From: Pseudomonadota bacterium
GTDB taxonomy: Bacteria > Pseudomonadota > Gammaproteobacteria > JAKAQQ01
Assembly (NCBI GenBank): GCA_027320085.1
Contig: DAHVLZ010000016.1
Span: forward strand, 1-16,007
Direction of reading: 5' to 3'
Length of the DNA: 16,007 nt
Positions 2,143 to 16,007 of the stretch are shown piece after piece. Both the position numbers and the translations under genes were made by a program. Under the pieces are notes generated by a model. The model had not been told where the DNA came from. It did no database searches and worked only from the letters and a program-made list of their open reading frames with translations. The stretch's first letter is position 1, and every line of letters begins with the position of its first letter.

Positions 2143-2222
2143 GGCTCGAGGCTTGGGGATGAGGTGCATTATGATAGGTGAAAATCCAGGTCCGAGCCGG
2201 CGCACCCCGCAAGGAGCCCCCG

Positions 2223-3503
2223 ATGAACGATGCCGATCTCATGGAACGGGCCCGCCGCGTTCTCGTGGGGGGCGTGAACTCCCCGGTTCGTGCCTACCAG
2301 GCGGTCGGCGGGGTTCCGGTGTTCGTCGCCCGCGGGAAGGGCGCCGAGATCTGGGGTGCCGATGGAACCTGCTACCTCGACTGCGTCGGTTCCTGGGGGA
2401 CGGCGCTTTTGGGCCATGCGGATCCCGATGTCGTGGCTGCGGTCTGCCGGGCGGCCCGGGATGGCCTGAGCTTCGGGGCCCCGACCCCGGGTGAAACCGA
2501 GCTGGCCCGAAGACTCGTCGAACGCGTGCCGGGCATCGAACGGGTCCGCCTCGTGAGCTCGGGCACCGAGGCCACCCTGAGTGCCATCCGGCTGGCACGG
2601 GCCGTGACGGGACGGGAGGGACTGATCAAGTTCGCGGGGGGCTACCACGGGCACGGAGACAGCCTGCTCGTGGAGGCCGGCTCGGGTGCGCTCACGGGCG
2701 GCCATCCGAGTTCGCCGGGCGTGCCGGCCGAGCTCGCCCGGCTGACCCGGGTCCTGCCCTACAACGATGCTGCCGCACTGCGGGAGACCCTGGCCCGCGA
2801 AGGTGACCGGATGGCGGCCGTGATCGTGGAAATCGTGGCCGGCAACATGGGCTGTGTGCCCCCCAGGCCCGACTTCCTCGCGGCACTCACGGAATCCACC
2901 CGCGCCCGGGGCGTGCGTCTCATCGCGGATGAGGTGATGACGGGCTTCCGCGTGGGACCCCGGGGCGCCCTCGGACGCTACGGCCTGACCGCCGACCTCG
3001 TCACCCTGGGCAAGGTCATCGGCGGCGGACTGCCCATGGGGGCCCTGGCGGGCGGGGCACGCGACCTCGACGCGCTCGCCCCGGAAGGGCCGGTCTACCA
3101 GGCCGGCACCCTGTCCGGCAATCCGCTTTCCGTGGCCAGCGGAATCGCCACCCTCGACAAGCTCGCCGATCCCGGGATCTACCACACCCTCGAGAAACGG
3201 ACCGGACGGCTGGCGGCCGGTCTCGAGGAACTCATCCGCGAGACCGGCACCCCTGCCACCGTGAACCACGTCCCCGGCATGTGGAGCCTGTTCTTCTCCC
3301 CCCCCCCGGTCCAGAACCTCACCGATGTCCGGCGCGGCCGGGTGGATCATTTCCGGCACTTCTTCCACCATCTCAAGCACCAGGGCATCCTGCTCCCGCC
3401 CTCTCCTTACGAATCCGCCTTCCTGTCTTTGGCCCACGAAGACCCGCACATCGACCGGATCCTCGAGGCGGCCCGCCAGGCACTGCGGACCCTTCCGGCC
3501 TGA
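2223..3503 (+). CDS. hemL: Glutamate-1-semialdehyde 2,1-aminomutase
   Basis: Motifs GGVNSPVRA, SGTEAT, KFAGGYHGH, DEVMTGFR, PLP-lysine LGKVIGGGLP and YQAGTLSGNP. RBS AAGGAG at 2211-2216 precedes ATG 2223. Confidence 0.97.
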   Translation: MNDADLMERARRVLVGGVNSPVRAYQAVGGVPVFVARGKGAEIWGADGTCYLDCVGSWGTALLGHADPDVVAAVCRAARDGLSFGAPTPGETELARRLVERVPGIERVRLVSSGTEATLSAIRLARAVTGREGLIKFAGGYHGHGDSLLVEAGSGALTGGHPSSPGVPAELARLTRVLPYNDAAALRETLAREGDRMAAVIVEIVAGNMGCVPPRPDFLAALTESTRARGVRLIADEVMTGFRVGPRGALGRYGLTADLVTLGKVIGGGLPMGALAGGARDLDALAPEGPVYQAGTLSGNPLSVASGIATLDKLADPGIYHTLEKRTGRLAAGLEELIRETGTPATVNHVPGMWSLFFSPPPVQNLTDVRRGRVDHFRHFFHHLKHQGILLPPSPYESAFLSLAHEDPHIDRILEAARQALRTLPA

Positions 3504-5483
3504 ATGCTGTTCCACCGTCTCATTCCACTCGTGATCCATTGGGTGAGCGGACATCCGCTCTGGGGCGTGGTTGCGGCCTTCGCCATCGCCTTCTGTGAAA
3601 CCCTGGCCTTCATCGGTTACACCGTCCCGGCCCTGTTCCTGCTCTTCGGCCTGGGGACGCTGGTCGGAAGCGGACTCCTGCCGTTCTGGCCGGTCTGCGC
3701 CGCACTCGCGGGAGGTGCCTTTCTCGGGGACACCCTGAGCTATCTTCTGGGCCGCTTTTTCCGTGGCCGGAGCTCGGGCTGGATCGGACATCGGGGAATC
3801 CGCCGCAACCTGGAACGGGGACAGCGCTTCTTCCAGAACCATGGCGGAAAGAGCATCCTCATGGGCCGCATGATCGGCGCCCTGCGGCCGATCGTCCCCG
3901 TCGTGAGCGGGATCGCCGATTTTCCGCTGTTGCGTTTTGTCTGGATCGACAGCCTGGCCGCGCTCCTCTGGGCTCCGGTCTATCTCCTGCCCGGGATGGT
4001 CTTCGGCGCGTCCGTCGGGCTTGCGGCGACCGTGAGCCTGAGGCTCGCCTTGATCCTGACCCTGGCCATCACCCTTCTCTGGCTCGGCCACTTCCTTCTG
4101 CGCTGGGGTTTCGGGCGTCTGGCCCCTTTCGAACAGCGCCTGCGCCATCTCTGGTTCCGTCTCTGGGAAGCGAGCGAGCGCTGGCCGGCCCTGGACCGGC
4201 TCACGGGATCCATCGACGAGACAGGGGGGGTCCCGCTCCTCGTCCTCACCGGATTGCTGCTCGTGGGCACACTCTGGTTGTTCAACCATCTCGTCCTCGG
4301 TTTTGTCGGTGACCGCTGGCCCGGATTCATCGATGCCATGGCGCTTGCGGCCGTGGAGCGGATCCCCCAAAACCCGTGGCGGGATGTCGCCGGCAATCTC
4401 ATGCTGTGGGTGGCTCCCGTCGGATGGCTGCTCTACGGCATCCTTGCGCTTCTCGTTCTCGGTTTCCGCCGCTCGCCCCAGCCGCTCCGCTATCTCGGCG
4501 CGGCCATCCTCTATGGCCTCGTGTGTGACTTTCTCGTCCGCGCCGCCTTCTTCCACTGGAACGGCAGTCTCGCAGTACCGGACAGCATCGCCGGTGCACT
4601 CTCCGTCTACGGGGTGGGAGCCGGCATCATCGCCACCGACTGGCCGCGGGCCAAAAGGCTTGCCCTCTACACGCTCTTCGCACTCCCCCTGGCCTTCGCG
4701 ATCGCCGGATCGCTCATGGTGGGCGCCCTCTGGCTGGGCAACGCGATCGGGTCGGGTCTCCTCGGGCTGATCTGGGCCGCACTGCTCGTCCTGGCCTATC
4801 GCCACCATCCGCACAGTCCGCCGCCACGTCTCCCGCTCACCCTCCTGTTCGCAGGCAGCCTGGCCGCCATGACGGCCGGGGCGGTGCTTGCGGGCTGGAG
4901 GCCGCCCGAGACCCCTCCGCTCGGGCTGCCGCGGCGGGCCTGGCTGGCCGGACACTGGCCGGGGTTCGGGAACCGCCGATCCCTGGCCCGGCGCTGGCCC
5001 ATGGATTTCAACGTCGAGTACGGCGGAGCACTCAAACCCCTCCGTCTCGCCCTCGGGAGCGCCGGCTGGACGGCCCCTCCCCGCCTGACCCCGCAAAATG
5101 CCCTGTCCTGGCTCATGACCCGTCCTCCCGTGAACCGGCTTCCGCTTTTCCCCACCCTCCATCATGGACGTTTCCCGGCCCTGGCCCTGCTCCGGACCGT
5201 GGATCACGACCCCTCCCGCCGGTCGGAATGGGTCCTGAGACTGTGGCGGAGTTCCTACATCCTGGAACCGGGAGGACAGACGCTCTGGCTGGGACAGATG
5301 AGTCCGTTCAAGACGCGGGAACATCTGGCCCTGATCACCTTGCCCCGCAACCAGGGCAGCCGGCGGGGGGGACTCATCCGCCTCGCCCGGTCCCTCGAAG
5401 GGCAAACCGGCTTCCGGCTCTGGTCACGCCGGATCGGCCACCACCCGATCCTCCTCATCGAATCGCGCCACCCGAAGCGCTGA
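3504..5483 (+). CDS. DedA(VTT)/PAP2-like/LssY C-terminal domain membrane protein
   Basis: N-terminal DedA motifs (AFCETLAFIGYTVP, GAFLGDTLSY.LGR, GRMIGALRPIVPVVSG), a central PAP2-like TM region, and a soluble LssY-like C-terminus (LPLFPTLHHGR, VLRLW, LWLG). It directly abuts hemL (TGAATG). Confidence 0.8.
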   Translation: MLFHRLIPLVIHWVSGHPLWGVVAAFAIAFCETLAFIGYTVPALFLLFGLGTLVGSGLLPFWPVCAALAGGAFLGDTLSYLLGRFFRGRSSGWIGHRGIRRNLERGQRFFQNHGGKSILMGRMIGALRPIVPVVSGIADFPLLRFVWIDSLAALLWAPVYLLPGMVFGASVGLAATVSLRLALILTLAITLLWLGHFLLRWGFGRLAPFEQRLRHLWFRLWEASERWPALDRLTGSIDETGGVPLLVLTGLLLVGTLWLFNHLVLGFVGDRWPGFIDAMALAAVERIPQNPWRDVAGNLMLWVAPVGWLLYGILALLVLGFRRSPQPLRYLGAAILYGLVCDFLVRAAFFHWNGSLAVPDSIAGALSVYGVGAGIIATDWPRAKRLALYTLFALPLAFAIAGSLMVGALWLGNAIGSGLLGLIWAALLVLAYRHHPHSPPPRLPLTLLFAGSLAAMTAGAVLAGWRPPETPPLGLPRRAWLAGHWPGFGNRRSLARRWPMDFNVEYGGALKPLRLALGSAGWTAPPRLTPQNALSWLMTRPPVNRLPLFPTLHHGRFPALALLRTVDHDPSRRSEWVLRLWRSSYILEPGGQTLWLGQMSPFKTREHLALITLPRNQGSRRGGLIRLARSLEGQTGFRLWSRRIGHHPILLIESRHPKR

Positions 5484-5511
5484 TGGGGGGCGAGTCCTCC
5501 TGCTGATGCCA

Positions 5512-5542
5512 CCCGGGGGGCGGGACCGCCCGCCTTCCTGGG
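5512..5542 (+). terminator. GC-rich hairpin downstream of the hemL-dedA operon
   Basis: GGCGGG-ACCG-CCCGCC core (5519-5534), extendable with G-U pairs. No U-tract. Confidence 0.3.
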
Positions 5543-5575
5543 GCTCCCGTCGCACCCGCAGGACGCGCCTGTCCT

Positions 5576-5610
5576 ATGCGACACAGCTTGTCGCAAACGA
5601 ATTCCATACT
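5576..5610 (+). promoter_or_regulatory. Palindromic operator, copy 1 (probable WYL-regulator site), with a -10-like hexamer
   Basis: TGCGACA-CAGCT-TGTCGCA (5577-5595), with CATACT at 5605-5610, 10 nt after TGTCGC. It is 20/21 identical to the copy at 8505-8525. Confidence 0.8.
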
Positions 5611-5620
5611 GGGGTTCTGA

Positions 5621-5720
5621 GCCCGGAGTCTCCCCCTGGGGAGGATTCCCGGCGTGGCCTGCGGCCCGGGTGACGGGAGGCCGGATCCCTCGGGTTCCCG
5701 TCATCCGCGCAGGCGATCAC
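5621..5720 (+). other. Highly structured 5' leader (two stem-loops)
   Basis: Stem 1 spans 5621-5653. Stem 2 has GCCTGCG (5657-5663)/CGCAGGC (5708-5714) enclosing CGGGTGACGGGA (5667-5678)/TCCCGTCATCCG (5696-5707). Confidence 0.5.
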
Positions 5721-5746
5721 CCATGCCAAAGAACGGAGGAACGCAG

Positions 5747-6952
5747 ATGACCTGTGACGTCGCAGTCTTGAACCGGTCGGGAGTCGCCCTGGCAACCGAC
5801 AGTGCCGTGAGCAGCTACCGGCACGACGGATCCGGAGAAACCCTCACCCGGGTGTTCCGGGGTTCCCGGAAACTTTTCGGGCTCCGTCCCGACCTGCCGG
5901 TCGGCATCCTGCTCCACGGTCGCACCAATCTCATGAACCGGCCGTGGGAGAGCCTGATCGGGACGTTCCGGCCGACCCTGCCGGCCCGGGGTTTCCCCAC
6001 GCTCGCCGACTATGCCCATGCCTTTTTCCGCCATGTGGAATCCCATACCGGGCTTTTCCCCTCCGCCCTCCAGCGCCAGGACTTTCTCCTGACCTGCGAG
6101 GCCTATGTGAAACAGGGGCTTCTCAGTCGCCTTCAGGAAGAGCGGGGCGAGGCCGGGGCGGATGACCCCGAGGCCGCGTGCCAGGCATTCGGTCCGATTC
6201 TGGGCAAGGACCTCGAGGAATGGCAGGGCGTGCCCGAACTCGAGGATTTCGGGGAACCCTATGGTGAGGAGGTTTGGCGGCGCTACGGGCGCGAGGTCCA
6301 GAAATCGTGGCCCGGGATCCTGGGATTCCGGCCCAGCCGGACCCTCGCGACCGGCCTGGCCCGGTTGGCCCGTCATCTCTACTCGAGGCAGTGGATCCAT
6401 CCCGCGGACATTTCCGGGATCGTCTTTGCCGGATTCGGGGAAAAGGACTTTTTCCCGTCAATTATCGACTACGAGGCAGGCACCCTGGCCGCGGACCGGC
6501 TCAGGGTCATCGCGGGGACGCGGAAGGCCATCGACGACACGGAGGATGCCCTGATCTGCCCGTTCGGCCAGGTCGAAGCAATCCATGCCTTCTGCAGCGG
6601 GATCACGCCGGAGCTCCTGGAAAACATCAAGCAGGCGATCCATCACGCGTGGCCCGGCGTGGAGGGCCAAAACCTGCTCGCCACCTTCCATGAAACGATC
6701 GGGCAGACCCAGATTGCGCCCCTCCTCCGGATGGTCGCCGCCATGCCCCGCCCCGAACTGGCCCGGCTGGCCGGAACGCTCGTGCACCTGACCGCCTTCC
6801 GCGCCCATCTCTCGTCCACCGAGGAAACCGTGTGCGGACCGGTGGACGTGGCCCTCCTCGGCCGGGAGAGCGCATTCACCTGGGTCCGGCGAAGCCCGCC
6901 GGACGACGCCTGCCCTGATTTTCATCCAACCACTGACCGGAGGCTCTCATGA
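5747..6952 (+). CDS. Proteasome beta-subunit/HslV-like Ntn-hydrolase (predicted Thr protease) with a large insertion, 401 aa
   Basis: RBS GGAGGA at 5735-5740 precedes ATG 5747. The mature N-terminus TCDVAVLNRSGVALATDSAVS gives Thr1 and Asp17. RKLFGL resembles the Lys33 strand, followed by VGILLHG. The C-terminal ETVCGPVDVALL resembles proteasome SGG.IDVAVI. The CDS call is firm; the function is inferred. Confidence 0.7.
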   Translation: MTCDVAVLNRSGVALATDSAVSSYRHDGSGETLTRVFRGSRKLFGLRPDLPVGILLHGRTNLMNRPWESLIGTFRPTLPARGFPTLADYAHAFFRHVESHTGLFPSALQRQDFLLTCEAYVKQGLLSRLQEERGEAGADDPEAACQAFGPILGKDLEEWQGVPELEDFGEPYGEEVWRRYGREVQKSWPGILGFRPSRTLATGLARLARHLYSRQWIHPADISGIVFAGFGEKDFFPSIIDYEAGTLAADRLRVIAGTRKAIDDTEDALICPFGQVEAIHAFCSGITPELLENIKQAIHHAWPGVEGQNLLATFHETIGQTQIAPLLRMVAAMPRPELARLAGTLVHLTAFRAHLSSTEETVCGPVDVALLGRESAFTWVRRSPPDDACPDFHPTTDRRLS

Positions 6953-7284
6953 GCGGACCAAACTCAATCCATGGGTCGATCGACTTCCTCGATTACGAGT
7001 TTCAAGCCGAGTGCAACGTGCCCTGCCGGATCCGCTTCGCGAACGGCCAGATCCAGGTCACCTGGGAGCAGGACGGACGCGGCACCAGACGGGAAACCGT
7101 CGAATACATCGGGACTGTCACAAACTCCGAACACTACGAACTCGAGTGTCCGGGCCATCGGGGCAAAGCCACCCTGCATCGCTTCCCGGGGGCACAAGTG
7201 CTCGTGGGCGACCTGTTCCACGAGGGCCAGCGCGGGATGTGGCGCATCTGCCTGTTTCCCGCCCAAGTCGGGGGTGATGAATGA
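6949..7284 (+). CDS. Hypothetical small beta-rich protein, 111 aa
   Basis: ATGA overlap with the upstream gene and GGAGG RBS at 6939-6943. Composition is globular, unlike the Pro/Arg-rich shadow ORFs. Confidence 0.75.
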   Translation: MSGPNSIHGSIDFLDYEFQAECNVPCRIRFANGQIQVTWEQDGRGTRRETVEYIGTVTNSEHYELECPGHRGKATLHRFPGAQVLVGDLFHEGQRGMWRICLFPAQVGGDE

Positions 7285-7306
7285 CCGGGCCCTGGGCCGG
7301 GAGGCA

Positions 7307-8485
7307 TCAAGGGCCCCGTCGATTCCCCGGGATCCGTCCGCCAGCCCGTAACCGGACGCGGACGGGGGGTGCCCGGTGAGCGGGCTTCCGTCCGGCTTCG
7401 GGCTTCCCCGGGGCTGCCGGAATGCCCGGTCTCCGGCTTGGGCGGATCGCCTTCCGAGGCGGGAGTCTGACTGGGGTGTAGCCGGCCTGCGCCTTCGCCA
7501 GGATCCGGGACAGCTCCCGGCGCAGCGGAGCGGGCCCGAGTACCGTGACCCACTCGCATTGGCCCAGGAGCCAGCGGCGCAACGCGCGCGTGTCGCGCAC
7601 CGTGGCCGTGACCACCGAAGCACTCCGCCCGGCCGGCTCGATTTTCTGGTCCTCCGAGAGGGGCTGCTCGCGCAGGTAGAAGGCAGCCTCCCGACTGACC
7701 GAGAGCCTGAGTTGCAGGGGATCCGGGCCGAGCGTCACCTCGACCTCGCCCCGTTCGATGTAATCGTCCAGCCGGAAGTTCTTTTGATTGGCCGAGGCCA
7801 TGAGCTTTCTGGCCGTGCGGATGCGCGGGAGGGCATAGAGCCGCGGCTCCTTGTAATTCCAGGCCCTGGCCACGAGGTAGATGATCTTTCTGCACGGTAT
7901 GAGGGCCAGCGGATGGAGGATGTAGGGCTTGCCCTGCGGCCGATCCTCACCGGGCTTCTGATAGGTGATCTCGAGCTGGCGGCCCTCGAAGAGCGCCTCG
8001 TAGACCGGGCCGGATACCGTTGCCGGGATGTCCGGGGCCTTGCGGGGCAGATCGCCCGTGACGTCGCAAACCCGCTCCTGCCAGCGCGCGACATCGCCTT
8101 CTCCATGCTCGACCAGGAGAGAGCGCGATTGGGAGAAGTAGGGTTTGAAATGCTTGAGGACCGTGGGCGGGAGGAGTTCGTACAGGCGATCCTCCATGAA
8201 CCGGAAGCCCAAGGCCGTGTAGACATCCATGGCCGGGAAACCCCTCTGCGGCGCATCCTTCGACCAGAACCAGTAGTACGTCCGGTCCTCCCTTTTGTAT
8301 TCGAGATGGGGAAAAGCATCCTGGAGTTTCATGAGGTCCCGCTGGATGCTCCGCACACTGATCTCCTTGCGGGTCGTGTGCTCGATCTGCTGCTGGAGAT
8401 CCAGTGTCTTGACACACCCGGGCGCCCTCGGGACGTGCTCCAGCATGGCGAAATGGCGCTTGATGACCTGGCTCGTCGCGGGCAT
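7307..8485 (-). CDS. WYL-domain transcriptional regulator (wHTH-WYL-WCX)
   Basis: wHTH SVRSIQRDLMKL, WYL domain (ALFEGRQLEITY...LHPLAL...IYLVA...RLYALPRI) and WCX (LRRWLLG...VTVLGPAPLR). GGAGG RBS precedes ATG 8485. Confidence 0.92.
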   Translation of the reverse strand: MPATSQVIKRHFAMLEHVPRAPGCVKTLDLQQQIEHTTRKEISVRSIQRDLMKLQDAFPHLEYKREDRTYYWFWSKDAPQRGFPAMDVYTALGFRFMEDRLYELLPPTVLKHFKPYFSQSRSLLVEHGEGDVARWQERVCDVTGDLPRKAPDIPATVSGPVYEALFEGRQLEITYQKPGEDRPQGKPYILHPLALIPCRKIIYLVARAWNYKEPRLYALPRIRTARKLMASANQKNFRLDDYIERGEVEVTLGPDPLQLRLSVSREAAFYLREQPLSEDQKIEPAGRSASVVTATVRDTRALRRWLLGQCEWVTVLGPAPLRRELSRILAKAQAGYTPVRLPPRKAIRPSRRPGIPAAPGKPEAGRKPAHRAPPVRVRLRAGGRIPGNRRGP

Positions 8486-8504
8486 GGCCCCTCCGGGTTT
8501 TCGG

Positions 8505-8539
8505 ATGCGACACATCTTGTCGCAAGTGGAGACCAGACT
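8505..8539 (+). promoter_or_regulatory. Palindromic operator, copy 2, in the WYL/AAA divergent intergenic region, with a -10-like hexamer
   Basis: TGCGACA-CATCT-TGTCGCA (8506-8524), with CAGACT at 8534-8539, 10 nt after TGTCGC. It lies 20 nt upstream of the WYL start codon. Confidence 0.82.
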
Positions 8540-8571
8540 ATCACAGAATCCACCCGTTCCGAGGAGCCACC

Positions 8572-10707
8572 ATGAATCCCGCACGCCCCCCCGTCCGCAA
8601 TTTGAAAACCCGGTGCCCGGGACGCGCGCCGGACGGCCCCCAAGCCCTGTGTCGGCTCTGGGGTCTCCGCATGCTGCTCCTGCCCGAGGCCCGGAAGGAC
8701 CTGGCCCCGCTGCTCCTCAATGCCGGGATCCTGCGGCAGCTGGGGCTCAAATCCTTGCGCACAAGGTCCCTCCTCCCCGAGGAGGAGGATCAAGATCTGG
8801 AACTGTCGCATTTCCGTCTCGGCGAGGTGAGGCGGGCCCTGTCCCGGATCCGGCGCCTGGAACCGGGATTTCCGGAGCCCCTGGCGGGCAACCTGAAGAA
8901 TTTCCAGTCGGTCTTCGGGCTCACCCCGCTCGAACAGAACCTGATCGGCTTCTTCGTGATCCTGAACCGGGTCGAGTGGTTCAGCGAGTGTTCCCATTGC
9001 CTGGGGCTTGAACTCGGCAACCTCCGGATCTGCCAGATCCTGGGCCATCTGCTCAAGGCACCGGTCGACGAGGTCAAAAAGGCACTCGGTTCCGGCGGAA
9101 CGCTCGCCCGGGTGGGCCTCCTCCGCTTCGATTCCCGGGAGGGGGGGACGCTCCAGAGCCGGGTCGATCTCATGGACGGGCTTGCCGAACTCCTGTCAGG
9201 GGGCGAAACCACGGTGGAGGAGCTCTTCGGCCGTTTCTTCCGTGAGGCCCCGGCATGCCGGCTCGCGCGCGCGGATTACCCTCATGTGGCCACAGACCTC
9301 GATCTCCTGGTTGACCTCTTCCGCAATGCCCGCTCCCAACGGACATCCGGGGTCAACGTGCTCCTCTACGGCCCACCGGGTTCCGGCAAGACGGAACTCG
9401 CGAGACTCATCGGCCGGGAGGCCGGACTTTCCCTCTTCGAGGTGAGCGAGACCGATGCCGACGGCGACCCCTATCCCGGCAAAAAGCGCCTCCTCCTCTT
9501 CAGGCTCTGCCAGCAGACGCTCGAGCAGCACGAGCACTCGGCCATTCTCCTGGACGAGATGGAAGACGCCTTTCCCGCCGGCCCGGACGGGGAATTTATC
9601 CCTGACCCGAACGCAACCCACAAGGCGTGGACCCACCACCTCCTCGAGACCAACCCCATCCCGGCCCTCTGGATCAGCAACGTCGTGGACCAGATCGATC
9701 CCGCTCTCCTCAGGCGCTTCAGTTACATCCTCAGGCTGGATGCCCCGCCCGCGCGGGTGCGCGAGCGCATCCTGGCCGAGCGGGTCGAGGGACTCGGCGT
9801 GACCGAGAGCTGGATCCGCCGCGTGGCCCGGGGATCCGCCTGCATGCCGGCCCATCTGGACACCGCGGCGCGCACGGCCCGCCTGGCCTCGCGCACGGGA
9901 CCCTCGGCCGAGACCGTGATGGAACGGGTGCTCCAAGGTCTCTTCGTGGCCTCCGGGGAGAAACCCATCCCCCGGGGAGAGCGCGCCTCCCCGCTCCCGT
10001 ACCGGCCCGACTGGATCAATCCCGACATCGACCTCAAGGGCATCCGGACCGCCTTCGGGCAGCACCCCGAACTCCGGATCTGCCTCTACGGACCTCCGGG
10101 TACCGGCAAGACCGCCTTCGGGAAACACCTGGCCGAGAGCCTGGATCTCCCCCACTGCCTCTACCGCGCCTCGGATCTGCTCGGGTGCTACGTCGGGGAG
10201 TCGGAGCAGAAGATCGCCGACATGTTCCGGCAGGCCGAGGAGGAAGGTGCCCTCCTCCAGGTGGACGAGGTGGACAGCTTCCTCGGGAAACGCGGGAGGA
10301 CCCAGCAGAACTGGGAGGCCACCCTGGTCAACGAGTTTCTGGTCGGTCTCGAGAACTTCCGGGGACTCTTCCTGGCCTCCACGAACCGCGTCACGGATCT
10401 CGACGAGGCGGCCTTCCGGCGCTTCGATCTCAAGGTCCGGCTGGATCCCCTGACACGGAGCCAGGCGCTCGAGATGGCCAATGCCGTGCTCGACGCCTGG
10501 CAGTGTCCGCGGGTTTCGGGTGACGGGGAGTCGCGCCTCGCCGCACTGACCGGCCTCACACCCGGCGATTTCCGGGCGGCACTCCGCAGACTCCTCCTCG
10601 TGGAAGAGCGAAACGCGGACACGCTCGTGGACGCGCTCGCCTCCGAACTGACCCACAAACCCGGAAACCATCGCGGTATCGGCTTCCTCGCGGAGTGGCG
10701 GCCATGA
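8572..10707 (+). CDS. Double-domain classical AAA+ ATPase, 711 aa
   Basis: D1: GPPGSGKT, ILLDEME, DPALLRRF. D2: GPPGTGKT, pore loop LLGCYVGESE, LLQVDEVD, STN, DEAAFRRFD. C-terminus GIGF. RBS GAGGAG at 8561-8566. Confidence 0.92.
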   Translation: MNPARPPVRNLKTRCPGRAPDGPQALCRLWGLRMLLLPEARKDLAPLLLNAGILRQLGLKSLRTRSLLPEEEDQDLELSHFRLGEVRRALSRIRRLEPGFPEPLAGNLKNFQSVFGLTPLEQNLIGFFVILNRVEWFSECSHCLGLELGNLRICQILGHLLKAPVDEVKKALGSGGTLARVGLLRFDSREGGTLQSRVDLMDGLAELLSGGETTVEELFGRFFREAPACRLARADYPHVATDLDLLVDLFRNARSQRTSGVNVLLYGPPGSGKTELARLIGREAGLSLFEVSETDADGDPYPGKKRLLLFRLCQQTLEQHEHSAILLDEMEDAFPAGPDGEFIPDPNATHKAWTHHLLETNPIPALWISNVVDQIDPALLRRFSYILRLDAPPARVRERILAERVEGLGVTESWIRRVARGSACMPAHLDTAARTARLASRTGPSAETVMERVLQGLFVASGEKPIPRGERASPLPYRPDWINPDIDLKGIRTAFGQHPELRICLYGPPGTGKTAFGKHLAESLDLPHCLYRASDLLGCYVGESEQKIADMFRQAEEEGALLQVDEVDSFLGKRGRTQQNWEATLVNEFLVGLENFRGLFLASTNRVTDLDEAAFRRFDLKVRLDPLTRSQALEMANAVLDAWQCPRVSGDGESRLAALTGLTPGDFRAALRRLLLVEERNADTLVDALASELTHKPGNHRGIGFLAEWRP

Positions 10708-10745
10708 GGTCCCCACTGCCCACGAGGGGCCGGGGCAACTCCGCG

Positions 10746-10754
10746 TGTTATCAT
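10746..10754 (+). promoter_or_regulatory. Possible extended -10 promoter for the wecA-like gene
   Basis: TGtTATCAT in the intergenic region about 90 nt upstream of ATG 10843. Confidence 0.3.
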
Positions 10755-10842
10755 GACGCTGCGAGAGCGAGGCTCGAGCGCCACCCGGCTTGCGGAACGG
10801 ACTGCTCGGGAATCACGCAGCAAGAACAAGGGAGACCGGAAC

Positions 10843-11919
10843 ATGATTGAGTTCCTGGCCGGAAGCAGTGGATTTGTGCTCACGGCGATCACGATCGGAC
10901 TCCTCAACCCCTATGCCCGGCTGCTCGGTCTCCTCGATGCGCCCGGGTTCCTCAAGCATCACACCGCCCCGGTCCCGCTCACGGGCGGTATCGCGATTCT
11001 CGCGGGCTTCCTCACCACCTCGGCACTGCTCTATCTCGTCCACCCCCTCCACTTCCCCGAATGGCCACCCTACCTCCTCTGCGTGACCCTGCTCGCCACG
11101 GTGGGCATCGCGGACGATGCCACCGCCCGGGTCGGCCCGGGCGTCCGGGCCTTCCTGGAGGTGGCGATCGCCAGTATCGCCGCGCTCACGGCCCATGTGA
11201 TCCTCATCCGGCTCGGCAACCTCTGGGGGGGCGGGCGGGTCAGAACCGGGCTCCTCGCGGTTCCCTTCACGGTGCTCTGCATCCTGGGCGTCACGAACTC
11301 GATGAACCTGATCGACGGCTCGGACGGGCTCGCGGGACTCGTGAGCCTCGCCTCCCTGTTCTGGATCGGGCTTTTCGCCCAGGCAACCGGACGAGCGGAT
11401 ATCCAGACCGCCGTCCTGATCCTGGGAGGCGGGCTCGCCGCATTCCTGGCCTGCAATCTGCAATATTCGCGGCGGCGGATCCGGGTCTTTCTCGGGAGCA
11501 CGGGGAGCACCTTCCTCGGATTCACGCTGGCGTGGATGCTGATCCACCTGAGCCAGTCGCCAGGGGCGGGCCTCCCCCCGATCGTGGCCGTCTGGATCAT
11601 GGGACTGCCGATCCTGGACACGATCAGTGTCATGCTGCGAAGGATCCTCCGGGGCCGCAACCCGCTTCATGGCGGTCGCGACCATCTCCACCACTTTCTC
11701 GCCCTGCTGGGTTTTTCGAGCCGGCGCATCGCCTTCTTCGAGGCCACTCTCGCACTCGGGTTCGGCGGCATCGGTTATCTGGGATGGGTGCTCCACGGTC
11801 CCACCCCGCTCCTCACCTGGGGATTCATCGTCGTGGCCGTGTTTTACTTCACGGGATTTGTGATGCTGGACCGCAAGCTCAAGTGGGCGGAGTGGCCGTT
11901 TCTCGAAGAGCCGGACTGA
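10843..11919 (+). CDS. wecA: Undecaprenyl-phosphate N-acetylhexosamine-1-phosphate transferase (WecA/MraY PNPT family)
   Basis: Motifs KHH..PVPLTGG, GIADD, NSMNLIDGSDGLAG, VFLGSTGS and RDHLHHFL in a multi-TM protein. The start is placed at ATG 10843 after GGGAG. Confidence 0.85.
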   Translation: MIEFLAGSSGFVLTAITIGLLNPYARLLGLLDAPGFLKHHTAPVPLTGGIAILAGFLTTSALLYLVHPLHFPEWPPYLLCVTLLATVGIADDATARVGPGVRAFLEVAIASIAALTAHVILIRLGNLWGGGRVRTGLLAVPFTVLCILGVTNSMNLIDGSDGLAGLVSLASLFWIGLFAQATGRADIQTAVLILGGGLAAFLACNLQYSRRRIRVFLGSTGSTFLGFTLAWMLIHLSQSPGAGLPPIVAVWIMGLPILDTISVMLRRILRGRNPLHGGRDHLHHFLALLGFSSRRIAFFEATLALGFGGIGYLGWVLHGPTPLLTWGFIVVAVFYFTGFVMLDRKLKWAEWPFLEEPD

Positions 11920-13095: not shown

Positions 13096-13929
13096 TCAGG
13101 GTGAGGATACCGATCCGGCCCCGTCCAGGAAGGAGGCCAGCGTCCTTTTGAGCACCGGAGACGGGGGCGTCCAGAACTGGGGGAGCTTGCGCAGGGGTTT
13201 GAGCACCCGGAACCCGGGGAACGGGGAGATGCCATTGACCCTCCAGGCCTGCCGGTCGAAACGGTTCGCCCGTATCCGGTTCCGGACCGTTGCATTGCTG
13301 GCCCCGCCCAATCGCATGGCAACCCAGAAATCCGGGATGCAGATGGAAGAAAGGCCATGGAGAAAGAGAAAGCGCAGCATGAGTTCGTAGTCGGCCGCGC
13401 TCCCGAGGTCGAGCCGCATTGCTCCGAATTGCCGGTAGAGACCAAGCCGGGCATAGAAGGTGGGATGGGGCGGCATCCATCCATATCGGAAACGGAGACG
13501 CCGATAGGAAGTTCCCGGCCAGACCCGGAGGATCCGCGTCGGTTCCGCCGGATCCACATAGGCGACCTGACCGTAACAGCTGTCCACACCATCCGAGAAG
13601 GCATCCACCACCCGTCCCAGGGTGTCCGGGCAAAAAAAGAAGTCGTCGGCATTCAAAAACCCGGCAATCTCGCCCGTTGCCAGTGCAAGGCCCTTGTTCA
13701 TTCCGTCGTAAATCCCGCGATCCCGTTCCGAGATCATCTGACGGACCGTCTCGGGGTACTCGCGGACCAAATCCAGACTCCCGTCGGTCGAGAGCCCGTC
13801 CACCACGACCTGCTCGATCTCGAACTCCCGTCCACGGGGTGAGCGGCGATGCTGCAGGGCGACGCTCCGGAGGCAGGTGCGAAGGGTGGCAACGCCATTC
13901 CTGACGGTGGTGATCACCGAGACTTTCAT
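13096..13929 (-). CDS. Family 2 glycosyltransferase (WcaE/WfgS-like)
   Basis: Motifs MKVSVIT, VVDGLSTDGS, SERDRGIYDGMNKG, FLNADD, PPHPTFY, AADYELMLRF and MRLGGASN. Confidence 0.92.
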   Translation of the reverse strand: MKVSVITTVRNGVATLRTCLRSVALQHRRSPRGREFEIEQVVVDGLSTDGSLDLVREYPETVRQMISERDRGIYDGMNKGLALATGEIAGFLNADDFFFCPDTLGRVVDAFSDGVDSCYGQVAYVDPAEPTRILRVWPGTSYRRLRFRYGWMPPHPTFYARLGLYRQFGAMRLDLGSAADYELMLRFLFLHGLSSICIPDFWVAMRLGGASNATVRNRIRANRFDRQAWRVNGISPFPGFRVLKPLRKLPQFWTPPSPVLKRTLASFLDGAGSVSSP

Positions 13930-14042
13930 GTCATTCCCGCTCCCGAGGCATCGAAGGGCCCGGGGTTCCGCCGGATCTGCCAGTTGCCCAGAACCAGGAG
14001 ATCCATGTGGGTCCTGAGGAAACAGTCAAGGGTTTCTTCAGC
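13926..14042 (-). pseudogene. C-terminal remnant of a NodU/CmcH-family carbamoyltransferase
   Basis: The minus strand reads AEETLDCFLRTHMDLLVLGNWQIRRNPGPFDASGAGMT*, resembling the family's terminal TPEEALDCFLRT.MD.LVLG motif. Its stop overlaps the GT2 ATG (ATGA). Only about 40 nt separate it from the upstream gene, so the rest of the gene is missing. Confidence 0.7.
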
Positions 14043-14084
14043 CAGAGGTGTGGTCCTGCGTCCTTGCGAGGCCTGGGCGGGTTC

Positions 14085-14933
14085 TCAGGAATCACTCTGC
14101 TTTTCTCTCAATCTACGTTCGTAGAGTTTCGCATCAACCAGAAACCGGTACCAGAAAGCCTGCAAACAGCAAAAGACCAGCCCCGGGAGACCGTCCAGGA
14201 AACCCACCCGGATCCAGTAGCGATAAACCCAGTAAAGCCATGCCCTAAAAAAAATGGGGGCTCTCATATAGATCGACAGCTTGAGTCTTCGCCTCAGTCC
14301 GGCCTGTCCTTCAGGAACACCTCCTTGCGGAGGATGGAGGAGATCCAGCACCTCGCGATCCGAGTAGCCATTGTGCTTGTCAACCCAAAATCCCAGTCCC
14401 TTGAGATTCTCGTCGACGAGATCATGCTTCATGTGAAGAATAGGTCCCCCTCCCTCCAGAACCACATGCTCATCCATCGCCCGATCCTCGAGGCGTCCTC
14501 TCCCCGTGCGCCAGATTCTAAGCAACCAGGTCGGATAATAGCCTCCATGCCGGATCCAGTGCCCCCAGAAATAGACCCGTCGGCGAATGAGCCACCCGTC
14601 GACCTTATGGTCTGTGGCGGGCAATACACGAGCCATCTCGGCGGCGAGCTCGGGCAGGAGATACTCGTCCCCGTCCATCCGCATGGTCCACGGCGTGTCT
14701 ACCGGTACCGTCTCAAGTGCCCAGTTGAACTGCCGGGAATGGTTCTCGAACGGATGCGAGTAGACCTCGGCACCGAGCTGGCGCGCCAGCTCCGCGGTGC
14801 CGTCCGTGCTTCCTGAGTCCACCATCACGAAACGGGCGGGAACCGCATCGAAACTGCGGATCAGCCGGGACAGGTGAAGAGACTCGTTCTTCACCAGAAC
14901 AATCACGGTCACGATCGGCTGATCGTTACTCAT
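14085..14933 (-). CDS. Family 2 glycosyltransferase (beta-1,4-glucosyltransferase/KdtX-like)
   Basis: Motifs IVLVKNES, VDSGSTDGT, QFNWAL, MDGDE, WIRHGGYYP, MDEH and KHNGYSDRE. The start at ATG 14933 overlaps the upstream stop. Confidence 0.9.
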   Translation of the reverse strand: MSNDQPIVTVIVLVKNESLHLSRLIRSFDAVPARFVMVDSGSTDGTAELARQLGAEVYSHPFENHSRQFNWALETVPVDTPWTMRMDGDEYLLPELAAEMARVLPATDHKVDGWLIRRRVYFWGHWIRHGGYYPTWLLRIWRTGRGRLEDRAMDEHVVLEGGGPILHMKHDLVDENLKGLGFWVDKHNGYSDREVLDLLHPPQGGVPEGQAGLRRRLKLSIYMRAPIFFRAWLYWVYRYWIRVGFLDGLPGLVFCCLQAFWYRFLVDAKLYERRLREKQSDS

Positions 14934-16007
14934 CCATCCCCCGGTTCTTTGAACTCGCAATGGCCGAAGAGAAAAGTCGAGCATACGCCTCCTCTAAATC
15001 CTCTTCCTGAAGACGCCGCAAACGATCAAGCGATCCGCTCCGCCATTCGGCATGCTCGGTTTCGGTCATCTCCGCGAGTTGGTCGATCCGCCGGGCAAAC
15101 AGCAGGGGATTCTCCAGTGGGATGGACCATCCCGCCCGCACCACCTCAAGGTCGGTCCATGGTGTCCGATCACTCACCAGAACCGGAGTCGCAGAAGCCC
15201 AGCTTTCGACGATGACGTAGCCGTAGTTTTCACCGAGCGTCGGAAGCAGCAAGGCATCGTACTGGCTCATGATCCCACTCACCGCATCCGGATCAACGGA
15301 TCCCCTATAGAAGGTTGTAACGTGCTTGGGCAGTTCCCGGAGGCTCCGCTGGCAGAGAGCCCAGTAAGCTGGATCCTCGATCGGACCGTAAATATCGAGA
15401 CAAACCGGCGCTTGAACCCGGGACAGGATTTCAAGAGCGCCAAGCAGGTTTTTCTTTGGCGAAATCCTCGAGAGGAAGATCAGGCGTGCACGACCCTCTT
15501 GCTTGGGCGCATGGCACTTCACCACCTCCGCGCTGGGTGTGGGAGGAAAGTTGGGTGCAAGAATCACCTCACTCTTCGCACCCACAACGCGCCTGATGGA
15601 TTCCACTTCTTCGGGGCTGGCGGCATGCCAGCTCAGCCCTCGGCCAAGGTCCAGGAGTTTGGCGAAACCCAGATAGATCCGCTTGCGTTTCGGCTTGAGC
15701 GAGAGCGCCCCGGCCGAAAATTCGCCACGCGGAGCAATGATTAAGGGAATCCGCTGTACGAGTCCCATCCGGCGAAGGCACAACAGTTGGATGGTGGGCT
15801 CCCGTGCAAAAAAACTGCAGATATAAATCGCGTCGGGGCGCATGTTCTCAACTAGCTGCAGGATTGCAGGGGCCGTACGTCTCAAAAATGACGCATAAAA
15901 AACCCAGGCTTGGCCTTTTTTTTGCCATTGATTGCTGGTGATCCCTGGCAGTTTCTCCCTTGTTCCGAACTCGCGATCCCGGCAGTACACATAGAAGGCA
16001 TACGGCG
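14926..16007 (-). CDS. Family 4 (GT-B) glycosyltransferase, 5'-truncated by the window edge
   Basis: Motifs IIAPRGEFS, FLSRISPKKNL and LLLPTLGENYGYVIVES (EX7E). The frame stays open to the window end (...PYAFYVYCRDRE). Confidence 0.9.
   Translation of the reverse strand, partial: PYAFYVYCRDREFGTREKLPGITSNQWQKKGQAWVFYASFLRRTAPAILQLVENMRPDAIYICSFFAREPTIQLLCLRRMGLVQRIPLIIAPRGEFSAGALSLKPKRKRIYLGFAKLLDLGRGLSWHAASPEEVESIRRVVGAKSEVILAPNFPPTPSAEVVKCHAPKQEGRARLIFLSRISPKKNLLGALEILSRVQAPVCLDIYGPIEDPAYWALCQRSLRELPKHVTTFYRGSVDPDAVSGIMSQYDALLLPTLGENYGYVIVESWASATPVLVSDRTPWTDLEVVRAGWSIPLENPLLFARRIDQLAEMTETEHAEWRSGSLDRLRRLQEEDLEEAYARLFSSAIASSKNRGMDE

Follow-up and report, generated by a model that had tools for sequence, protein, structure and literature searches.

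Does a proteasome-like protein encoded 1.6 kb from an AAA+ ATPase, under a common operator sequence, form a protease machine with it, or do the two answer separately to the same regulator? The question is raised by a cassette at positions 5576-10707 of a 16,007-nt stretch of DNA from a Pseudomonadota bacterium (the window), which consists of four ORFs arranged as first noted. The gene at 5747-6952 (plus strand) encodes the 401-aa proteasome-like Thr1 Ntn protein P0001 and is translationally coupled, through an ATGA overlap, to the gene of a 111-aa orphan protein, P0002 (6949-7284, plus strand). The regulator gene (7307-8485, minus strand; P0004, 392 aa, wHTH-WYL-WCX, DriD/DdaA type) is convergent with the 111-aa gene and divergent from that of P0003, a 711-aa two-module classical AAA+ ATPase (8572-10707, plus strand). 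The proteasome-like and AAA+ genes are in separate transcription units, flanking the regulator on opposite sides. The flanks, with hemL and a DedA/VTT-LssY_C gene upstream and GT4 glycosyltransferase, epimerase and GT2/GT1 genes downstream, agree with the original prediction, which had placed the cassette between housekeeping and polysaccharide genes. In a congener (G001, locus L087) the cassette proteins are 65, 50, 52 and 73% identical.

The case for a common switch starts from the DNA that precedes the two units. A candidate DriD/DdaA-type operator, ATGCGAC-N7-GTCGCAA, lies upstream of the proteasome-like operon (box 1, 5576-5596) and again within the 86 bp that separate the divergent regulator and AAA+ genes (box 2, 8505-8525). 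An identical palindrome had been claimed for both places, and TGCGACA-N5-TGTCGCA indeed has exactly two copies in the window (5577-5595 and 8506-8524), a number reached in none of 200 shuffles (mean 0.04); the repeat around it reaches 35 nt at 80% identity. The 2.14-Mb genome holds no exact copy beyond this pair; two more sites have one mismatch, and full boxes number only three. Among the genome sites checked, none was seen at a DNA-repair gene. Both boxes are retained in the diverged G001 (L087 863-881 and 3802-3820) with different spacer sequences, and as far as sequence can tell this bears out the proposed co-regulation by the WYL protein. Nine nucleotides past each box we recognize a putative -10-like hexamer, CATACT at 5605-5610 (plus strand, without a -35 hexamer) and CAGACT at 8534-8539 (plus strand, towards the AAA+ gene). 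The gap is 9 nt at 4/4 sites, the hexamers at the three sites other than box 1 being CAGACT or TAGACT, and a scan of 5400-10900 returned no canonical sigma-70 promoter.

The cassette box fits the published motifs of both DriD (CGAC-N7-GTCG, PMC13004042) and DdaA (CGWCA-N5-TGWCG, PMC12392091). For DriD the site reads ATACGAC(X)7GTCGTAT, and the right half of the didA oligo, printed as ATACGAC-CGTTTCT-GTCGCAA, is identical to that of our box; DriD promoters also lack a -35 and keep a fixed distance from box to -10 (PMC13004042). P0004 itself matches the Pfam WYL (2e-11) and WCX (1.4e-11) families, the architecture of two activators of SOS-independent damage responses, DriD of Caulobacter and DdaA of the Moraxellaceae. 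A search of the PDB with the single P0004 sequence gave no match. The profile of its 11-member family, over a WYL-WCX part (positions 152-331) that leaves the DNA-binding domain outside, matched best 7u02, 7tzv and 8tp8 (E 5.5e-16 to 2.2e-15), which are DriD structures (PMC10853764, PMC9186387), and next PafBC (1.8e-13). Since the box fits the DriD/DdaA motifs and DriD and PafBC are the closest solved relatives, P0004 is probably an ssDNA-sensing activator of the DriD type. The kin named for it originally were DriD, PafBC, CapW and BrxR: the activators among them, to which DdaA can be added, are close, whereas the repressors CapW and BrxR are more distant and, in the available passages of PMC12392091, form a clade distinct from DriD/DdaA/PafBC.

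The regulon could be the same and its WYL protein a CapW/BrxR-like repressor that leaves the promoters once bound to ssDNA, a reading that we consider unlikely but worth weighing. The boxes lie across the place where the core promoter is expected, with box 2 21-39 nt upstream of the regulator's start codon, and a repressor would equally use a box over the -35 position. Defence islands with adjoining WYL repressors are well known, and CapW-type repressors are reported to sense ssDNA as well (PMC9122601, PMC9122588, PMC11662680). Such islands recall our cassette in that a WYL regulator adjoins defence-type cargo that varies, with ssDNA as the likely signal, and defence-island-type partner genes do occur in other genomes. 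However, the solved relatives nearest to P0004 are activators, and its family profile found no BrxR or CapW chain in the PDB at E <= 1. The box equals activator motifs, the promoters resemble DriD-dependent ones in having no detectable -35 or canonical sequence, and the spacing from box to -10-like hexamer does not vary among the four sites.

Pfam, NCBIfam and PADLOC give no support for calling P0001 Ntn-hydrolase-like, as the original prediction did; the label is nevertheless upheld by the invariance of T2/D18/S19/K42 in the family and by an AlphaFold model (pLDDT 82.7) whose PDB matches are led by 20S beta subunits; Anbu takes rank 39 in that list (best E 1.8e-4, probability 1.00). Two helical insertions are predicted in the model, of ~108 aa after H1/H2 and ~45 aa between H3/H4. 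The model fits a place for P0001 in the PMI group, an uncharacterised set of proteasome homologues that was described by Fuchs, Alva and Lupas (2021; PMC8665760) and likewise occurs in many bacterial phyla, archaea and phages. The subgroup is probably PMI-3/PMI-4, judged by described features rather than by representative sequences: in the available passages these share the proteasome-like beta-sandwich, the Thr1/Asp/Lys triad without a propeptide, and long helical insertions at the same two places. The same passages predict that insertions at such positions hinder ring and double-ring assembly; they give no PMI function or gene context, and the words 'operon' and 'genomic context' are absent from the main text. 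The family is found in bacteria and archaea (445 confirmed stretches, 6530 clusters). As to P0002, a 50% identical ORF occupies the same place in G001, a search of 5.8 billion proteins returned its own cluster only, and it has no match in Pfam, NCBIfam, PADLOC or PHROG.

P0003 is the double AAA+ protein that had been proposed, with two AAA stretches (PF00004, 2.9e-40) and a YVGE pore loop in D2; each module has Walker A/B motifs and Arg pairs that do not vary in its family. Its N domain is helical, possibly winged-helix, and has no PDB fold match at E <= 0.001. That of Cdc48/VAT is, in contrast, a double-psi barrel, and P0003 scores 71 against the TIGR01243 CDC48 cut-off of 803. Its C-terminus, ...AEWRP, is not an HbYX motif. 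IetA, for its part, has one AAA module and works in defence with a subtilisin-like serine protease, IetS. The cassette is reminiscent of that system (Gao 2020, 'Iet') in that a protease-like gene lies close to that of an AAA ATPase and in a D2 that resembles IetA (PADLOC 7.9e-32, NCBIfam 4.9e-29), but the match is partial, covering D2 only (profile positions 126-274 of 367), it reaches 101.6 bits against a cut-off of 510 in the NCBIfam IteA model, and the cassette has no subtilisin-like partner. PADLOC 2.0.0 gave no named defence system, in line with the initial impression that the combination matches no described one.

It had also been proposed that the two products may form a new inducible ATP-dependent protease, in which a proteasome-like ring would degrade substrates unfolded by the ATPase, as in HslUV or PAN-20S. 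A Thr1 proteasome-fold protein together with a classical-clade AAA+ carrying YVGE does recall HslUV and the proteasome-AAA systems (PAN, Mpa, Cdc48/VAT, Cpa). The nucleotide-binding and Arg residues of both modules and the Thr1/Asp/Lys of P0001 are intact, the operator is common to both and co-inherited in two species, and defence pairs of ATPase and protease exist, including IetA-IetS, the ATPase of which resembles D2. Yet we now regard the machine as improbable because the homologues are not linked in other genomes. Within 8 kb of the proteasome-like gene, none of 80 loci has an AAA+ gene that matches at the level of the family, and only one has a WYL gene. (The lone AAA match at locus L023 is a stretch of 40 residues around Walker A.) Of the genomes in a 400-genome sample of the class, 27 carry the AAA family and 6 the proteasome-like family, with an overlap that consists of the source genus and one genome, G300, only. 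Outside the genus, 1 of 25 AAA-positive genomes has a proteasome-like gene, that of G300, broken by 6 stops, and 3 of 4 genomes with the proteasome-like gene lack the AAA family. In favour of co-operation, G300 also holds a second, very diverged proteasome-like copy 46 nt from a box, at a locus that includes a WYL-AAA pair and thereby has both families. The predicted hindrance of the insertions to ring assembly (PMC8665760, in part) argues against the machine as well, as do the lack of an HbYX-like end, the separate transcription units and the company that the AAA gene keeps elsewhere. The genome has an ordinary hslV-hslU pair apart from the cassette.

That company is of another kind. In other Gammaproteobacteria the AAA+ gene is the usual companion of the P0004-type WYL regulator: of the 23 AAA loci from outside the genus, 9 have a same-family WYL homologue in the fetched flank. 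The other 14 do not, and the AAA gene is therefore not always WYL-controlled. The nine WYL-positive loci contain 17 boxes, the 14 WYL-negative ones 6, against a background of 17 per 994 kb. Exact CGAC-N7-GTCG boxes precede the AAA gene at L101, L102, L142 and L150; L144 has an intergenic CGTCA-N5-TGACG variant and L141 GCGACA half-sites only. The WYL-AAA pair stands beside DUF2779/Cas4-like nucleases at 4 of 23 loci, ADP-ribosylglycohydrolases at two, and GmrSD, PDDEXK_4, a DruA-like gene and a NERD-UvrD helicase at one each, while box-bearing genes near the AAA gene encode SIR2 (L140) or, in a 7-kb contig without WYL, a PDDEXK_1 nuclease (L149). An alternative, to which we give a little under an even chance, is that the cassette is an anti-phage island, perhaps acting by abortive infection, whose effectors are defence genes independent of each other, the proteasome-like one being a complete system by itself. 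In favour of it are the defence-type neighbours of the AAA gene. Both families are patchy (27/400 for the AAA gene; 6/401 class genomes for the proteasome-like one, despite its spread over bacteria and archaea), and both effectors match PHROG families full-length (phrog_5990 for P0001, phrog_10401 for P0003). Proteasome-like genes are solitary in variable neighbourhoods, with no neighbour cluster common to more than 7 of 80 loci, and occur near the ends of Streptococcus satellite and prophage records (13 phage records). On the other hand, PADLOC 2.0.0 has no model for P0001 or P0002, the IetA matches of P0003 are partial, no integrase, tRNA or composition break was found at the cassette, its conservation within the genus is about that of the adjoining GT4 gene, and the regulator's relatives are known chiefly from DNA-damage responses.

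The explanation that we favour, with somewhat more confidence than doubt, is that a DriD/DdaA-type WYL-WCX factor activated by ssDNA controls the cassette as its small local regulon, with the effectors as separate cargo. A regulator dimer would bind the ATGCGAC-N7-GTCGCA(A/T) boxes, each presumably in the -35 position of one of two promoters, the first driving the proteasome-like gene and its 111-aa partner, the second the AAA+ gene, in the direction opposite to the regulator gene. If P0004 works as DriD, DdaA and PafBC do, ssDNA from DNA damage or phage replication would bind the WYL domain, and the loaded regulator would recruit RNA polymerase to both -35-less promoters, so that both units would be co-induced. 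A PMI-type homologue, normally solitary, horizontally mobile and also carried by prophages and satellites, may have been recruited under the shared box in this genus. P0001 and P0003, whose biochemical activities are presumed, would probably be fellow targets of one switch rather than parts of one machine, because the two genes are almost never together in other genomes. A counterpoint to separate cargo is that the pair is kept under one operator in two species of the genus. The physiological setting, DNA-damage recovery or anti-phage defence, is about evenly balanced, and the two are not exclusive because DdaA activates damage-response and anti-phage genes alike (PMC12392091).

Compared with DriD and DdaA, this regulon is local and comprises genes for an AAA+ ATPase and for a proteasome homologue; the words 'ATPase' and 'AAA' are absent from the main texts searched of the DriD/DdaA papers. 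P0004 further differs by ~55 additional residues in an Arg/Pro-rich tail. Our results give a first hint at how two families that are uncharacterised, the PMI-type proteasome homologue and this AAA+ ATPase, may be regulated. Control of PMI homologues by a WYL protein and its box, as suggested by this genus, by G300 and by a copy divergent from a WYL gene at L010, is new information.

The four genes stand in the order proteasome-like gene, small partner, WYL regulator and AAA+ ATPase, and the observation at the root of the original prediction, four genes with one palindrome present twice, is correct down to its coordinates. TGCGACA-N5-TGTCGCA lies at 5577-5595 and 8506-8524, the only exact copies in the genome, and two matches occurred in none of 200 shuffles; the full box reads ATGCGAC-N7-GTCGCA(A/T). 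The proteasome-like gene (P0001, 5747-6952, plus strand) overlaps through an ATGA with the gene of its 111-residue partner (P0002, 6949-7284, plus strand). The regulator (P0004, 7307-8485, minus strand) starts at an ATG at 8485 preceded by GGAGG, and the ATPase (P0003) occupies 8572-10707 on the plus strand. The stretch makes up an entire contig of 16 kb, in a genome that measures 2.14 Mb and is 96% complete. The sequencing runs found to contain it include no RNA run; they are four DNA runs from one mine-drainage metagenome study, and one of the four may be where this DNA came from.

The cassette is flanked on one side by hemL and, directly upstream, by a gene of 659 codons that fuses a DedA/VTT membrane domain to LssY_C (3504-5483, plus strand), and on the other by a GT4/epimerase/GT2/GT1 polysaccharide cluster. 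A 1078-residue open frame antisense to hemL and the DedA gene (2169-5405, minus strand) has no family match and is most likely a high-G+C artefact rather than a gene. Because G+C is clearly lower in the minus-strand GT2/GT2/GT1 genes (0.57-0.59 at 13500-16007, against 0.63-0.71 in the remaining contig), composition suggests recent acquisition of the polysaccharide genes rather than of the cassette. A congener, G001, keeps the order proteasome-like gene, small partner, WYL, AAA and GT4, with identities of 65, 50, 52, 73 and 75%. In G003, AAA, GT4 and epimerase genes are found at a contig edge, and neither effector gene was found in G002 (86% complete) with the queries used.

In the regulator P0004, Pfam recognizes WYL and WCX domains but detects no HTH; the N-terminal part of the protein carries conserved R45 and R49. 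A single-sequence search of the PDB gave no match; a profile of 11 family members matched DriD best (E 5.5e-16 to 2.2e-15; entries 8TP8, 7TZV and 7U02; PMC10853764, PMC9186387) and PafBC next, and the 13 PDB sequences that reached E <= 1 included no BrxR or CapW chain. With a wHTH-WYL-WCX architecture and its closest similarity to DriD, P0004 is of the DriD/DdaA type; no sequence similarity to the BrxR/CapW-type repressors was found. In Moraxellaceae the WYL protein DdaA activates DNA-damage as well as anti-phage genes; it stands beside DriD and apart from CapW and BrxR in the published tree, as far as the available part of that report goes (PMC12392091).

DriD binds ATACGAC(X)7GTCGTAT, the printed didA oligonucleotide reading ATACGAC-CGTTTCT-GTCGCAA (PMC13004042), and DdaA binds CGWCA-N5-TGWCG (PMC12392091, available part). 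The congener keeps the two boxes with the same arms but other spacers, and all four sites of the two genomes fit both the DriD motif CGAC-N7-GTCG and the DdaA motif. DriD promoters have no -35 element; its place is taken by the box, whose distance from the -10 is constant (PMC13004042). Each of our four boxes is followed, after exactly 9 nt and in the direction of the effector gene, by CATACT, CAGACT or TAGACT, and no canonical sigma-70 promoter was found in 5400-10900. The centre of the second box is only 57 nt from the start codon of the ATPase, so that this box must overlap the -35 region. We infer from this geometry a promoter with the box over the -35 position and a -10-like hexamer 9 nt further on.

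The putative regulon, judged from the distribution of its sites, is local. Only one further full box exists in the genome, ATGCGAC-GAATCGT-GTCGCAT, on contig C36 at about 6304-6326 (locus L003, 1499-1521), where it separates an intergenic neighbour of 324 codons and unknown function from a gene for a class I SAM methyltransferase, and P0004 may have another small target here. Read by eye, CAAACT follows this box 9 nt on, on the minus strand. A role of P0004 as a global damage-response regulator was rejected: CGWCA-N5-TGWCG occurs at 7 genome sites versus 4 for the reversed control, and two of the 7 are inside ORFs while another falls in what we take, by eye, to be a conserved stretch of 16S rRNA. 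A one-mismatch site on contig C45, inside an AbiEi-type gene and with a broken GTCG core, was treated as chance.

The proteasome-like protein P0001 matches nothing in Pfam, NCBIfam or PADLOC, nor in the PDB when searched as a single sequence, and a PF00227 scan of the whole genome matches only hslV on contig C1. Its sequence-level links to HslV and the proteasome are sub-threshold. Aligned with hhalign to 11 HslV sequences, the family profile scores a non-significant probability of 1.5% (E 0.033), with Thr1, Asp17 and Lys33 in register, and against the PDB its only match, to beta subunits of archaeal proteasomes around the GGPVDVA segment, is sub-threshold (E 0.18). The AlphaFold (AF2) model (pLDDT 82.7, pTM 0.81) retrieves 20S beta subunits as top PDB hits in Foldseek (probability 1.00, E 1.8e-4; TM on the target reaches 0.55); Anbu ranks 39th, and 75% of the members of its Atlas neighbour cluster (score 0.90) carry PF00227. 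T2, D18, S19 and K42 never vary, whether 15 or 51 diverse family members are compared, and nearly all members begin with Met-Thr, so that methionine removal would expose Thr1 without a propeptide. As modelled, P0001 thus has the proteasome-like Ntn fold at the superfamily level, with an N-terminal Thr, an Asp/Lys triad and a four-layer alpha-beta-beta-alpha core; it does not significantly match PF00227, the model of the Proteasome/HslV family. The same genome encodes an ordinary HslV (contig C1, about 124139-124702; L107 1471-2034) followed by hslU. Twelve residues precede the Thr-Thr that begins mature HslV elsewhere, either as a short propeptide or as an over-long start call.

Two insertions in the model point to a more precise affiliation. 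Four inserted helices follow H1/H2 (residues about 106-213), and H3 and H4 are separated by another insertion (about 288-332). Both are at the positions given in section 3.3 of the 2021 work by Fuchs, Alva and Lupas, whose available text describes such helical insertions in the PMI proteasome homologues and reports both in PMI-3 and PMI-4 (PMC8665760); by its insertions P0001 is probably a member of one of these subgroups. PMI-4 is the abundant group and includes phage members, as the flattened Table 1 of that work reads, and its authors predict, in the same available text, that such insertions hinder the assembly of rings and double rings (PMC8665760). Our literature search returned no work on PMI-4 and the proteasome besides theirs, and nothing joining the phrase of their title with 'anti-phage'.

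The family is large. A word-index search gave 15 relatives, the full HMMER scan 6530 clusters (50% identity), with 3712 below 1e-30, and the genome scan 445 confirmed stretches in many bacterial phyla and in archaea; it corresponds to phrog_5990, of 'unknown function'. Thirteen records of the phage collection contain it, most of them from Streptococcus satellites and prophages; the gene lies close to the record end, a placement typical for accessory or defence cargo. The Javan-series records with a family member are MK448488, MK448354, MK448342, MK448317-9, MK448509, MK448832 and MK449008, and in these Streptococcus records the genes are annotated as hypothetical proteins only.

The ATPase has two classical AAA modules, as do Cdc48, VAT and p97, and VAT and Cdc48 are its closest PDB relatives (E 3.6e-30). 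The Walker A lysines, Walker B Asp-Glu pairs and paired arginines of both modules, and the YVGE pore loop of D2, are invariant or consensus in 19 family members, and the protein matches phrog_10401 over its full length (5.7e-87). P0003 is nevertheless not a Cdc48 orthologue, because it scores far under the family cut-offs for CDC48, PAN, FtsH and IteA (71.2 bits for TIGR01243 against a cut-off of 802.65) and because its N domain, compared with the Cdc48-type N-domain fold, is of another kind: conserved and helical (model pLDDT 87.4), with no PDB match at E <= 0.001 in a fold search and, as weak best matches, MarR-type winged-helix proteins (E 0.16). The Iet defence system combines IetA with a subtilase partner, IetS. 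Only D2 of P0003 resembles IetA, at 101.6 bits versus an NCBIfam equivalog cut-off of 510, and neither Pfam nor PADLOC found a subtilase-type partner in the cassette.

As for the small partner, a search of 5.8 billion proteins returned its own cluster alone. An ORF of equal length and 50% identity stands at the same place in the congener, and P0002 is therefore a real, genus-restricted gene. Complex prediction of P0001 with P0002, each as an alignment, scored 0.00 twice, which is evidence neither for nor against an interaction.

The original prediction went further and proposed that protease and ATPase form one machine under WYL control, and here the linkage of homologues speaks against it. 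Among the best 80 of the 445 confirmed proteasome-like stretches, none has a family-level match to the ATPase (one has a 40-residue Walker-A match), none has the small protein, a single one (L010) has a WYL gene, and no neighbour cluster is common to more than 7. DriD-type boxes are absent from the 25.9 kb covering 300 nt upstream of these 80 distant genes, and from the proteasome-like loci of G016, G127 and G368. Seen from the other side, the AAA family is present in 27 of 400 scored genomes of the class, a tally that takes in G000 (the genome studied here), the congener G001 and G303 (flagged unpublished) and leaves G255 unscored. In 23 AAA loci outside the genus (three of them from one genus; G303, G058, G317 and the contigs below 3 kb, L091 and L104, were left out), a WYL homologue of the P0004 family appears in 9 and the proteasome-like family in one, L157, from G300. 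The proteasome-like family is itself found in 6 of 401 class genomes (G000, G001, G016, G127, G300 and G368), so outside the genus the proteasome-like gene occurs in 1 of 25 AAA-positive genomes, and the ATPase in 1 of 4 genomes positive for the proteasome-like family; in that single case, G300, the proteasome-like copy carries six in-frame stops and frame changes. The conserved linkage or co-occurrence of protease and ATPase that characterizes HslUV and proteasome-AAA pairs is not observed, and the original prediction had itself given such an outcome as refuting the machine.

What the ATPase gene does travel with is the WYL regulator, together with its box. The 9 WYL-positive AAA loci have 17 exact CGAC-N7-GTCG boxes and the 14 WYL-negative ones 6, with a background of 17 per 994 kb of unrelated loci. 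They lie upstream of the AAA gene in the WYL-bearing loci L101 (two), L102, L142 and L150; in L144 the intergenic region contains a variant, CGTCA-N5-TGACG, and L141 has half-sites only. Several genes near the WYL-AAA pair carry a box of their own. The neighbours include DUF2779/Cas4-like nucleases (4 of 23 loci), ADP-ribosylglycohydrolases (L144 and L157) and, at one locus each, GmrSD_N, PDDEXK_4, a DruA-like gene and a NERD-UvrD helicase; in L140 a SIR2 gene with a box is 4.5 kb away from the AAA gene, and a boxed PDDEXK_1 nuclease lies near the AAA gene of L149, a short contig that shows no WYL gene. Titles and opening lines of abstracts yielded no defence-system paper on DUF2779. L150 has two AAA paralogues back to back. 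The dense island L157 (G300:C44, 77-17654) contains two paralogous AAA+ genes and the NERD-UvrD helicase, an operon-like run of WYL, AAA, DUF2779, a 126-residue protein and ADP-ribosylglycohydrolase, and a frameshifted proteasome-like pseudogene whose start is 46 nt from a box. In L010 (6837-10762 of contig CAWDWL010000005.1, an uncultured proteobacterium MAG), an independent cassette, a WYL-WCX gene and a proteasome-like gene with 35% identity to P0001 point away from each other, with a GACA-N5-TGTC palindrome in between, and an overlapping gene follows for a 521-residue fusion of a dual-specificity phosphatase and an ADP-ribosylglycohydrolase. Gene neighbourhoods thus depict the DriD/DdaA-type regulator as a putative collector of varied nucleic-acid and stress or defence cargo; the AAA+ protein accompanies it most often, the proteasome homologue occasionally (in this genus, G300 and L010).

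We consider it fairly probable that the cassette is a local regulon, induced by single-stranded DNA, with two independent effector units, where induction, binding and activity are all predicted. If so, activation by P0004 would be somewhat favoured over repression, and DNA-damage recovery and anti-phage defence, which are not exclusive, would have much the same chance of being its purpose. A physical AAA+/proteasome-like protease would account for one box before each effector, a layout kept in the congener; given how rarely the two families meet elsewhere, we regard it as unlikely. In another reading, to which we would give equally poor chances, P0004 would sense single-stranded DNA and induce a segregase and a peptidase working in sequence, the AAA+ protein, as a winged-helix carrier, stripping proteins from DNA and the PMI homologue cleaving them. 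Targets would be host proteins that are trapped or cross-linked, or proteins of phage replication, and the orphan partner P0002 would tune the PMI homologue. If true, this pair would do in bacteria what p97 does on chromatin with the proteasome or SPRTN, or alternatively would be an ATPase-protease defence like Iet in which the protease is a Thr1 enzyme, and the box-linked PMI gene beside the WYL-AAA pair of G300 would reflect convergence on a useful pairing and not chance.

The analysis removes the attractive yet unsupported claim of a new proteasome-like ATP-dependent protease. Neither the PMI homologues, whose clusters run to thousands across bacteria, archaea and phages, nor the AAA+ family of P0003 has a known function, and a DriD/DdaA-type box on each gives the two families a testable setting, namely induction by single-stranded DNA, DNA damage or phage. 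DriD/DdaA-type regulators are known, in the available parts of the reports, as global damage-response activators in Caulobacter and Moraxellaceae (PMC13004042, PMC12392091). Our findings would extend this type of regulation to a small, mobile and local module in other Gammaproteobacteria, with an AAA+ gene as its commonest cargo.
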